From NCBI GenBank assembly GCA_035510315.1, contig DATKHH010000003.1:1-42145 (forward strand): DNA of 42,145 nucleotides, written 5' to 3'. This document shows positions 17,565 to 20,450 of the stretch, piece after piece. The translations under genes were made by a program, and so were the position numbers. The stretch comes from Candidatus Saccharimonadia bacterium. GTDB taxonomy: Bacteria > Patescibacteriota > Saccharimonadia > Saccharimonadales > DATKHC01. Under the pieces are notes generated by a model. That model was not told the origin of the DNA. It searched no databases and saw nothing but the letters and a program-made list of their open reading frames with translations. Within the stretch, counting starts at the first letter, position 1. Each line of letters starts with the position of its first letter.

Positions 17565-20450
17565 ATGAAAAGATATAATCCCAAAGAGATTGAACCAAAG
17601 TGGCAATCACAGTGGCAAAGTGATGGAATATATAAGGCTTTAGATAACTCTAAAAAGCCGAAGAAATATGTTCTAGAGTTTTTCCCATACCCTAGCGGTA
17701 ATGCAATGCATGTCGGCCATGTCCGTAATTATACAATTGGAGATACACTAGCCAGATTTAACAGAATGAATGGTTATAACGTTCTCCACCCAATGGGCTG
17801 GGACGGTTTTGGTTTACCTGCAGAGAACTATGCAATTAAAACGGGTATAAGCCCTAGAGTGGCAATTGATCGTAATACTAAACGCTTCAAACAACAGCTT
17901 ATGGCTATGGGATTTGGCTATGATTGGTCCAGAGAGGTTGATTCGACAGATCCAAAATATTATAAATGGACACAGTGGTTTTTCCTTTATTTGTTTAAAA
18001 AAGGCCTAGCATATAGACAAGAAAGTTTGCAGTGGTGGTGCCCAAAGGATAAGACAGTATTAGCTAACGAACAGGTTGAAGCCGGTAGGTGTTGGCGATG
18101 CGGCCACGTAGTAGAGAAAAAAGCACTCAAACAATGGTTTTTTAAAATTACTGATTATGCTGATGATTTAGAAAAAGATCTGGAAGATCTTGATTGGAGT
18201 GAGTCGATAAAGACCGTGCAGAGAAACTGGATAGGTAAAAGTATTGGTTGTGAAGCAGACTTTAAAATTAAAGGTCAAGCAAAAGTAATAAAGGTGTTTA
18301 CGACCAGAATTGATACCATATATGGTGCAACTTTTTTAGTTTTAGCACCAGAACATTACCTACTTAAGGAAATAGTTACAAAAGATCAAAAGGCTGAAGT
18401 CGATAGATATATTGACCTGGCTATGTCTAAAAGTGACATACAAAGACAAGACAGTGATAAGAAAAAAACAGGTGTGTTTAGTGGTGCGTATGCCATAAAT
18501 CCTATTCATGATCAGCCGATTCCAATTTGGATTGCTGATTATGTTCTAGGCACTTATGGCTCTGGTGCAATAATGGCCGTACCTGGCCATGACCAAAGAG
18601 ACATGGATTTTGCAACTGAATTTAGCCTTCCTATTATCGAGGTCATTGAACCTGTTTTTGGTGAACCGCAAGGGGATGAAGTACATAAAGATAAAATCAT
18701 AGCTGTTTTAAGAGATCCTAGAAACAACAAAGTAATTGTGCTCGATTGGGGTTTAAGACAGAAACGCCATGGTGGCAATATGCTAATTGGGGGTAGCGTT
18801 GAAAAAGGTGAAGATACAGTAGCAGCTGCAGAGAGGGAAATACGAGAAGAAACGGGCTATTCAGATATAAAGTTTGTTCGTAAACTAACGTCAAGGGGGC
18901 ATGGCTACTTCTATTCAAATGTAAAAAATCAAAATTATTGCGGACATTGTAGTGGACTATTATTTGAACTGGGTAGCGATAAAAAGGTCTCAACAAATCT
19001 CGATGAGGGTGAAAAAAATAAATTTAATCTTAAGTGGATGGATGAAGATAGTGTAGACCAAATACTCGATGATGGTATACATCAGGCATTTTATAAACGT
19101 CTTGTCCTAAATGAATGTTACACGGGCGAAGGTATAATGATTCATTCAGGAGACTATGATGGGATTTCATCATCTGAGATGAGAGACAGGGTTTTGTCTG
19201 ATCTTGTTAAACAGAAAAAAGCTAAAGAGAAAGTAAATTACAAGATCAGAGATTGGTTAATTAGTAGACAAAGGTATTGGGGAGCACCTATCCCGATTAT
19301 ATATTGCACGGATGATGGTATTGTTGCTGTGCCAGAAGATGAGCTACCAGTACTACTTCCAGAGATTGAGAAATATGAACCTAGCGTCGATGGTAGAAGT
19401 CCGCTGGCTAATGTAGATTCGTTTGTTAATACCATTTGCCCAAAATGTGGTAAACCTGCCAAAAGAGAAACTGACACTATGGACGGCTTTGCATGTAGTA
19501 GCTGGTATTTTTTGAGATTTGCTGATCCACATAACGACAAGCAGCCATTTTCAAAAGACAAGGTTGATTATTGGTTACCAGTTGATGAATATATTGGTGG
19601 AGCAGAGCATGCAGTCATGCATCTTTTGTACGCTAGATTTTGGACTAAGGTTATGCATAGCGGAGGACTAATTAATTTTAGCGAACCGTTTAAAACGCTT
19701 AAAAATCATGGCATGATTTTAGCTCCTGATGGAGCTAAAATGAGCAAAAGCAAGAACAATACTATTGAACCAGAAACTTTATTGGAACAAGGCTATGGTG
19801 CTGACACTATTAGGATTATGGAGCTATTTATAGGGCCATGGGATCAAAGTGCTAACTGGAGTGTTGAGGGAATGGCCGGAGCTAATAGATTTTTACAGCG
19901 AATCTGGACTATATGTAGTGAATTCTTAGAGTCTAAAACCAAACCAAAAAACGACGAAACTTCAGAAACACTAAAGAGGGTGATTAATCAAACAATTGAT
20001 AAGACTTCTAAAGATATACATAACCTAAGTTTTAACACTGCTATTGCGGCACAGATGGAATGTTTAAATCAGCTTTACAAGCTAAAAGAAGTGGATAATT
20101 TTTCTAATCGTGAAAGTTGGAGTTTTGCGCTAAAAACACTCCTTCAGTTGCTTGCTCCGTTTGCACCACATATCAGTGAAGAACTTTGGAGTAAGTTCGA
20201 TCAAAATGAATCAATACACTTATCTTCATGGCCAGCAGCAGACGAAATTTATCTAAAGAAAGATAAACAGACTATAGTTATTCAAGTAAATGGTAAATTG
20301 CGTAGTGAAATAGAAATAAGTTTCGATTTAAGTGAGGCTGAAATTACAGATTTGGCTTTAAAACAATCAAAAGTAAACAACGCTATAAAAGGTAAAAACA
20401 TTAAGAAAACCATACATGTAAAAGATAGGTTAGTTAACTTCGTAACTTAA
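17565..20450 (+). CDS. leuS: Leucine--tRNA ligase carrying an inserted Nudix domain
   Basis: HIGH-type motif (NAMHVGH), KMSKS, CP1 editing signatures ([26 protein letters not shown]) and [16 protein letters not shown]. At 961 aa it is about 100 aa longer than the 860 aa I recall for E. coli LeuRS. Confidence 0.95.
   Translation: [961 protein letters not shown]
18660..19125 (+). other. Nudix hydrolase domain (about 150 aa) inserted in the LeuRS linker after CP1
   Basis: Complete Nudix box [23 protein letters not shown] (G-x5-E-x7-R-E-U-x-E-E-x-G-U), aa 410-432, nt 18792-18860. It is flanked by the LeuRS segments ...[13 protein letters not shown] and [13 protein letters not shown]. Confidence 0.8.

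Follow-up and report, generated by a model that had tools for sequence, protein, structure and literature searches.

A Nudix module nested in the CP1 editing domain of a Saccharimonadia leucyl-tRNA synthetase, a candidate portable pyrophosphohydrolase

The leuS gene of a Candidatus Saccharimonadia bacterium encodes a leucyl-tRNA synthetase (LeuRS) that houses a complete Nudix hydrolase domain within its CP1 editing domain. The gene lies on contig DATKHH010000003.1 (GCA_035510315.1), of which we analysed positions 1-42,145 of the forward strand; this whole stretch is referred to as the window. With a probability of roughly 0.55, we favor the reading that the module is an independent Nudix pyrophosphohydrolase nested in LeuRS, that it belongs to a family of portable cassettes and that it acts on a nucleotide-type substrate or an RNA end. 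The leuS features on which the argument is built are the following:

17565-20450, + strand: leuS, bacterial-type LeuRS of 961 residues, houses the Nudix insert
17709-17720, + strand: synthetic-site HIGH signature H49-V-G-H52, unchanged in all of 101 aligned orthologues
18300-18317, + strand: threonine-rich CP1 editing motif T246 T247 R248 I249 D250 T251, compared in the 101 orthologues
18591-18602, + strand: editing-site aspartates D343-Q-R-D346, compared in the 101 orthologues
18672-19106, + strand: nested Nudix hydrolase module in a CP1 loop, residues 370-514, delimited by alignments and supported by Pfam and a structure model
18792-18860, + strand: Nudix box G410-x5-E416-x7-R424-E425-I-x-E428-E429-x-G431-Y432, residues 410-432, an exact match to GX5EX7REUXEEXGU
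18909-18926, + strand: family-specific post-box motif, aromatic pair F449-Y450 (17 and 18 residues past the box) and K454
19011-19037, + strand: downstream E483 and W491 of the module, kept in 93% and 97% of 246 Nudix copies
19107-19241, + strand: C-terminal remainder of the CP1 editing domain, residues 515-559, aligning from Thermus thermophilus residue 373 on
19737-19751, + strand: KMSKS signature, residues 725-729, invariant in the 101 orthologues

A complete Nudix domain interrupts the CP1 editing domain

The original prediction, made from the DNA sequence alone, had placed a complete Nudix domain with a perfect Nudix box (nucleotides 18792-18860) inside the 961-residue LeuRS, and both parts of this claim held. 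The Pfam family NUDIX (PF00293) matches residues 378-506 of the whole protein with 47.5 bits (cut-off 21.1, E=2.4e-12) and the insert alone with 50.6 bits, and the box fits the consensus exactly. In a full-length AlphaFold model, residues 370-514 reach predicted local distance difference test (pLDDT) scores of 86-96, the strands and helices follow the order of the Nudix α/β/α sandwich and the box is carried on helix 418-430. The domain modeled alone scored a pLDDT of 94 and a predicted template-modeling score of 0.88; the predicted Nudix fold is thus intact in both the full-length and the domain-only models.

Upon alignment to T. thermophilus LeuRS (PDB ID 1h3n), residues 1-369 of the window protein correspond to residues 1-369 and residues 515-720 to residues 373-579 of the Thermus enzyme, so that 145 residues occupy the place of three (370-372), close to the approximately 150 residues originally counted there. 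Nudix-less LeuRS of Saccharibacteria (P0072, P0096 and P0120; 809-815 residues) have about eight residues instead of residues ~364-519. The LeuRS equivalog model TIGR00396 (leuS_bact) scores 1025 bits against a cut-off of 548, its match being split in two: residues 4-379 cover profile positions 1-374, and the remainder picks up past the insert.

The insert had originally been assigned to the linker that follows CP1. This placement has to be revised, because the match to the editing-domain family PF13603 (201.7 bits) is broken at profile position 148, with only positions 1-148 of 185 preceding the Nudix module, while the same family runs continuously over positions 1-181 in the Nudix-less P0096. 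The alignment to the Thermus enzyme, in which we take CP1 to end at residue 417, likewise puts the insert within CP1. The motif GEG.M.NSG is kept in LeuRS with and without the insert. At the insert borders we detected short repeats at chance level only and no mobile-element signature, and the Pfam matches of the window LeuRS included no Hint splicing or homing-endonuclease domain.

The host synthetase retains its catalytic and editing motifs

The host LeuRS looks fully functional, because the HIGH and KMSKS signatures, the threonine-rich motif and the editing-site aspartates are invariant or nearly so and the modeled protein body superposes on solved LeuRS. Among the 101 orthologues, T247, D250 and T251 of the threonine-rich motif, presumably equivalent to T247/T248/T252 of Escherichia coli LeuRS, are invariant, while T246 and R248 are at least 90% conserved. 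R345 and D346 are likewise invariant and D343 is at least 90% conserved; we equate D343/D346 with D342/D345 of the E. coli enzyme. The full-length model has a mean pLDDT of 87 and aligns to solved bacterial LeuRS with TM-scores, normalized on the target, of up to 0.87.

The window protein shares its family and its catalytic and editing motifs with the bacterial LeuRS of known structure (T. thermophilus, 1h3n and 2bte; E. coli, 4aq7 and 4arc). It differs from them by carrying the 145-residue Nudix module for the three-residue CP1 loop and by lacking the leucine-specific domain (about residues 580-635 in T. thermophilus): residues 720-724 (window positions 19722-19736) bridge Thermus residues 579-636. 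The missing leucine-specific domain is a variant feature, and membership in the bacterial LeuRS family stands. No solved LeuRS chain carries a Nudix domain, as judged by alignment to the PDB and by structure matches.

The Nudix active site is conserved across divergent copies

Among the 120 best LeuRS homologues of the window protein (57-70% identical), 117 contain PF00293; the named records are Candidatus Saccharimonadales or Saccharibacteria. The catalytic glutamates, on whose conservation the original prediction had made its case depend, are kept throughout: E425, E428 and E429 are each found in 117 of 117 orthologues, as is G410, while G431 is present in 116, R424 in 114 and E416 in 112.

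We then pooled 246 Nudix copies from all contexts, which are mutually about 25-30% identical. The positions of the Nudix box are 86-100% conserved in this set, with E425, E428, E429, G410 and G431 reaching 98-100%. Residues kept in at least 75% of the copies are W395, G410, E416, A422, R424, E425, E428, E429, T430, G431 and Y432 in and around the box and K454, L469, E483 and W491 beyond it; an arginine at position 375 and a glycine at position 411, which the window protein replaces by lysine and serine, respectively, pass the same threshold. An aromatic residue, F or Y, occupies position 449 in 232 of the 246 copies and position 450 in 226, and K454 is found in 221. This pattern argues for a conserved metal and ligand site, and hence for catalysis, as far as it can be read from sequences; by analogy, E483 may serve as an additional metal ligand or as the catalytic base. 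A tyrosine about 16-18 residues past the Nudix box has been proposed as a marker of diadenosine polyphosphate (ApnA) hydrolases. The window module has Y448, F449 and Y450 in this region, and an aromatic rule of this kind discriminates weakly.

The closest structural relatives are RppH-, Ap4A-hydrolase- and decapping-type enzymes

A Foldseek comparison of the module with the PDB returned only Nudix enzymes at a probability of 1.0, with TM-scores of 0.6-0.79. These were Enterococcus faecalis 2azw, E. coli RppH (including its complex with diadenosine tetraphosphate [Ap4A], 7sp3), NudB, MutT1, NudI and the Aquifex Ap4A hydrolase. When a profile of 24 diverse Nudix copies was compared with solved structures, the best match was AvrM14 (4e-9), which has been termed an mRNA-decapping Nudix enzyme (doi 10.1101/2023.11.14.566975), followed by 2azw, 3fcm, the Lupinus Ap4A hydrolase and Dcp2. 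On the basis of these profile and model comparisons, the RppH/Ap4A-hydrolase/decapping type is the closest structural class of the module.

The module shares the fold and the Nudix box with members of this class (RppH, 4s2x and 7sp3; the Ap4A hydrolases of Aquifex, 3i7u, and Lupinus, 1f3y; AvrM14, 8dp8; and Dcp2), and AvrM14 aligns with its K-D-x-x-R stretch past the box. In contrast to these free-standing enzymes, to which it is only 12-21% identical, the module is nested, and it has a signature of its own in W395, K454, E483 and W491. The RppH models of NCBIfam score about 23 bits on the insert against cut-offs of 116-118, and none of the NCBIfam Nudix subfamily models reaches threshold on nine free-standing relatives of the module either.

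Nudix-bearing LeuRS genes are widespread in Patescibacteria and gut bacteria

Scanning one genome per species with a profile of the insert, we found relatives of the module encoded in at least 498 species-representative genomes. In 79 of the 80 best loci, the N- and C-terminal parts of LeuRS flank the module at the same site. The titles of the matches listed include Saccharibacteria, Paceibacterota, Taylorbacteria, Giovannonibacteria and Parcubacteria, along with many metagenome-assembled genomes (MAGs) from the gut that are labeled Bacilli, Tenericutes, Mycoplasmatota or Erysipelotrichaceae; one of them, 'Candidatus Scybalousia intestinigallinarum', stands in the NCBI taxonomy as Bacilli incertae sedis. 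All of these taxon labels are the submitters' own, and the few matches labeled Muribaculaceae, Gammaproteobacteria or Clostridium look mis-assigned. The database search that had been proposed to map the spread of such LeuRS thus places them in Saccharibacteria, other Patescibacteria and uncultured gut Bacilli.

More than 100 independent assemblies (NCBI, JGI, ENA and Logan), with contigs of up to 1.45 Mb, share the junctions seen in the window. An artefact, be it a chimeric assembly or a neighboring gene fused in frame, is ruled out by this recurrence and by the 79 concordant loci, and its probability is practically nil: leuS is one uninterrupted open reading frame (ORF), and the composition of the window shows no break across the insert region.

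On a Paceibacterota contig (L022, positions 2914-3360), a 148-residue ORF comprises the end of LeuRS CP1 and most of the Nudix module. It is without the C-terminal part of LeuRS and looks like a decayed remnant; we therefore rejected it as a case of the Nudix module in another host.

The module occupies several sites and several hosts

A word-indexed search with the insert alone returned a single protein and was uninformative. Querying 1.84 billion representative proteins exhaustively with the 145-residue insert yielded 225 matches in total at E≤1e-3. We mapped the best 150 of these with the N-terminal part of LeuRS, its C-terminal part and the insert as separate queries. Most of them proved to be whole or fragmentary LeuRS, in which the module occupies three sites:

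Site A, the site used in the window, after about residue 365: 95 copies
Site B, where CP1 begins, after about residues 208-240: 15 copies, in some cases as a tandem pair
Site C, after about residues 582-630: 5 copies

One LeuRS (P0122) holds three Nudix modules. Two or three modules per protein were seen in this LeuRS and in P0123, P0125, P0129, P0140, P0141, P0161, P0185 and P0209, as well as at positions 3619-3906 of L008.

Outside LeuRS, a prolyl-tRNA synthetase (ProRS; P0236) carries a Nudix domain at residues 398-515, between its anticodon-binding and C-terminal domains, that is 42% identical to a LeuRS cassette. In a class I synthetase resembling isoleucyl-tRNA synthetase (IleRS; P0249), which also has a histidine-phosphatase domain, the Nudix domain is 41% identical to a Saccharimonadales LeuRS cassette, and an M17 aminopeptidase (P0160) contains two GNAT and two Nudix domains. 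Free-standing members of 154-170 residues (P0139 and P0165) are about 50% identical to LeuRS cassettes. Overall, the non-LeuRS hosts and free-standing members are 41-51% identical to the LeuRS cassettes.

Further insertions accompany the module in some LeuRS. Two proteins of 1140 and 1144 residues (P0063 and P0095) have, in addition to Nudix, an α/β-hydrolase of about 175 residues (PF00561, PF06821) at query residue 239, that is, at site B; the window encodes a free-standing α/β-hydrolase at positions 14177-14926. P0031 (1452 residues) has a 494-residue insert at query residue 551 with repeated editing-domain and Nudix matches, which stems from a tandem duplication or else from misassembly. 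P0055 and P0074 (about 1090 residues) carry an insert of about 120 residues at residue 581 that has no Pfam match. Given the α/β-hydrolase in some LeuRS and the existence of an NCBIfam model for IleRS with a GNAT domain (NF040702; see below), these lineages seem to be generally prone to nesting small enzymes within housekeeping proteins.

The module and the LeuRS core have separate histories

For 98 Saccharimonadales orthologues, we compared the LeuRS core with the insert by matrices of pairwise identity. Mean pairwise identity is 70% for the core and 32% for the insert. The inserts fall into at least 12 clusters with less than about 30% identity between them, and the cores are equally similar within and between these clusters (0.67-0.77). 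In three pairs of proteins, identity is 80-100% along LeuRS and drops to 17-33% exactly over residues 360-515. The window protein and its relative P0002 show no such discordance, and three further pairs, one of them from gut Bacilli, show the reverse pattern:

P0004 and P0037: core 85%, insert 24%
P0085 and P0086: core 85%, insert 22%
P0039 and P0110: core 84%, insert 20%
Window protein and P0002: core 69%, insert 70%, no discordance
P0007 and L006: core 56%, insert 76%, reverse pattern
P0012 and L002: core 58%, insert 76%, reverse pattern
L055 and L063 (gut Bacilli): core 50%, insert 77%, reverse pattern

The gut MAGs labeled Bacilli, Tenericutes or Mycoplasmatota have the same LeuRS-Nudix architecture, with inserts about 70-79% and cores 45-56% identical; among them are L014, L019-L021, L026, L028, L034, L036-L039, L045, L054-L058 and others. 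Because uniform vertical divergence cannot yield both discordance patterns, these comparisons indicate that LeuRS genes have exchanged or replaced their Nudix modules. Where a LeuRS is Nudix-less, its nearest core relatives carry the module (P0096 and P0024, 80%), which on this sequence evidence is most simply explained by loss of the module.

Proposed function and alternative explanations

We suggest that the window gene specifies a working LeuRS and, within a surface loop of its CP1 domain, a second enzyme that is self-contained. The module would represent a distinct Nudix family that is centred on Patescibacteria and resides as a portable cassette in loops of housekeeping enzymes, being exchanged, duplicated and lost independently of the host protein. 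The putative metal-binding residues E425, E428 and E429 would hydrolyse a nucleoside-diphosphate-linked compound, with contributions from K454, E483 and the aromatic pair 449/450. As for the substrate, we would guess at a dinucleoside polyphosphate, another 5'-polyphosphate nucleotide or an RNA end, a class that we propose because of the nearest solved relatives and the conserved aromatic pair past the box. Nesting in an essential, constitutively expressed gene may provide guaranteed expression. We infer, then, that the module is catalytically active on a substrate of this class and functionally largely independent of LeuRS. Its occurrence in a non-synthetase host and as a free-standing protein, its losses and its swapping argue against a role bound to LeuRS chemistry.

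Several observations weigh against this proposal or restrict it. No NCBIfam Nudix subfamily model reaches its cut-off on the insert (best 19-24 bits against 103-245), which is why the substrate is a guess. The ProRS, IleRS-like and M17 hosts are each represented by one metagenomic cluster representative. A minority of copies have Q at position 416 and A, M, T or Q at position 424, while keeping the three central glutamates; judging from these sequences, not all Nudix copies need be active. The overall correlation between core and insert identity (Spearman -0.15) is biased, since the 98 orthologues were picked by their score to the query; the mosaic pairs are unaffected by this choice. Finally, the Nudix site may be functionally coupled to tRNA or to LeuRS chemistry.

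One form of such coupling would be an Ap4A or ApnA hydrolase that rides on the synthetase and clears the dinucleoside polyphosphates arising as side products of aminoacyl-adenylate chemistry. The solved relatives do include Ap4A hydrolases (1f3y, 3i7u) and RppH bound to Ap4A (7sp3), the aromatic pair 17 and 18 residues past the box is conserved, and all but one of the four host proteins found belong to the aminoacyl-tRNA synthetases. However, members of this family also occur free-standing and within an M17 aminopeptidase, some LeuRS have lost the module without a replacement within the gene, and no Ap4A-hydrolase or RppH/NudH model of NCBIfam reaches threshold. A uniform housekeeping role would, moreover, leave the replacement of cassettes and the multiple copies per protein unexplained, and LeuRS is, to our knowledge, not among the strong Ap4A producers. 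The idea is possible and compatible with the data, which are neither specific to it nor require it, and we regard it as unlikely. Seated on the domain to which the 3'-end of tRNA binds, the module might instead act on RNA held by LeuRS, processing or repairing the end of tRNA(Leu) or decapping or dephosphorylating RNA 5'-ends; it could, for example, remove a toxin-added pyrophosphate or a nucleotide-type modification, in which case cassette turnover would reflect conflict. In line with this view, AvrM14 is the best profile match, with Dcp2 and RppH also ranking high, all three LeuRS insertion sites lie in or beside insertion domains that contact tRNA, and conflict genes typically combine a fixed active site with a hypervariable surface around it. 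Yet RNA binding by the module is hypothetical, and the M17 aminopeptidase and the free-standing members place the family outside tRNA-binding proteins as well. In a PADLOC scan, the module matched only PDC-S07 (E=5e-5, 21 bits), a weak generic Nudix match; viral contigs contained neither a related cassette nor any other family member, the 17 matches obtained there being weak, partial and located around the Nudix box; and we found no literature linking Nudix enzymes to toxSAS-modified tRNA. Action on LeuRS-held RNA therefore appears quite improbable to us.

A broader version of the conflict idea holds that a hypervariable mobile cassette colonises loops on the surface of essential translation enzymes, in bacteria with small genomes, and is maintained by conflict, destroying a nucleotide-type toxin or inhibitor or repairing a toxin-modified tRNA or RNA end; repeated replacement, together with a fixed active site and a changing surface, would then be the trace of an arms race. 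Defense and phage libraries gave generic Nudix matches only, and no defense genes were found next to leuS, which adjoins ddl, a Mur ligase gene, nusB and rnc; we give this version little credence. The module could also be non-catalytic, modulating LeuRS in a structural, oligomerisation or nucleotide-sensing role, or it could be a tolerated passenger without function. Either would fit an insert that diverges far more rapidly than the core (mean identities of 32% and 70%), that is dispensable in some lineages and whose box is degenerate in some copies (E416Q, R424 replaced). It sits poorly with the retention, at 90-100%, of the central glutamates, the box glycines, K454, E483 and W491 across 246 divergent copies and with the gut Bacilli, whose inserts are better conserved than their LeuRS cores (77% against 50%); a passenger would decay. 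We consider a non-catalytic module very improbable and retain the independent, cassette-borne pyrophosphohydrolase as the preferred reading.

Relation to known systems

The LeuRS and Nudix families are both known components, and the fused genes are public under the label 'leucine--tRNA ligase'; it is the architecture that appears to be undescribed. In agreement with the original prediction, which had not been aware of a description of the fusion, we found no paper on this architecture in the full-text literature, and we know of no account of a Nudix domain nested in LeuRS.

Two known arrangements offer partial parallels. The NCBIfam model NF040702 (ileS_w_GNAT, an 'exception' model) likewise describes a class Ia synthetase with an extra small-enzyme domain; there, however, the host is IleRS and the guest an acetyltransferase, and the 75 bits scored by the window LeuRS fall far short of the cut-off of 1999, so that it does not belong to this group. 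The module resembles inteins and other in-frame insertions in being self-folding, patchily distributed, located in an essential gene and exchanged independently of the host. In contrast to inteins, the module has no Hint or homing-endonuclease domain and no flanking repeats, and the structure model predicts that it stays folded in the mature protein; nothing seen in the window LeuRS points to splicing.

Other genes in the window

The window contains a second, stand-alone Nudix gene:

21206-21706: stand-alone Nudix gene between nusB (20726-21187) and rnc (21693-22397), overlapping the rnc start by 14 nucleotides

Its product is 31% identical to the LeuRS insert over 58 residues around the Nudix box. 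The original impression that the two are not close paralogues thus stands, and a recent duplication of this gene into leuS can be rejected. The best matches of the gene, all below threshold, are MutT1 and RppH-type models, and its RNA-processing neighborhood suggests, by analogy, an RppH-like role.

At positions 19-4359, the window encodes a 1446-residue protein with helix-turn-helix, SNF2 helicase and methyltransferase domains and weak PADLOC matches of the ZorD, DpdE and DrmD-like types. Near it, at positions 6766-7302 on the minus strand, lies a gene for a PLD-like nuclease resembling MkoC/DrmC; together, the two may form a defense island. A nickel superoxide dismutase gene (PF09055, 147 bits) at positions 24242-24658 adjoins trmD.

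Implications

Aminoacyl-tRNA synthetases are among the most conserved enzymes, and catalytic domains added to them in bacteria are rare and usually terminal. In hundreds of uncultured species, most of which are Patescibacteria with a largely unknown biology, a second enzyme appears to reside within the LeuRS proofreading domain. For annotation, the finding bears on LeuRS-Nudix genes that are all labeled simply 'leucine--tRNA ligase'. The natural Nudix-less LeuRS are ready-made controls. In-frame exchange of a domain within an essential gene, together with its spread to a ProRS, an IleRS-like synthetase and an aminopeptidase, points to evolution by domain nesting, which is poorly documented in bacteria and may partly explain the unusually long housekeeping proteins of these lineages. 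If the module is active, these Nudix-bearing LeuRS would be bifunctional enzymes that tie translation to nucleotide, alarmone or RNA-end metabolism.

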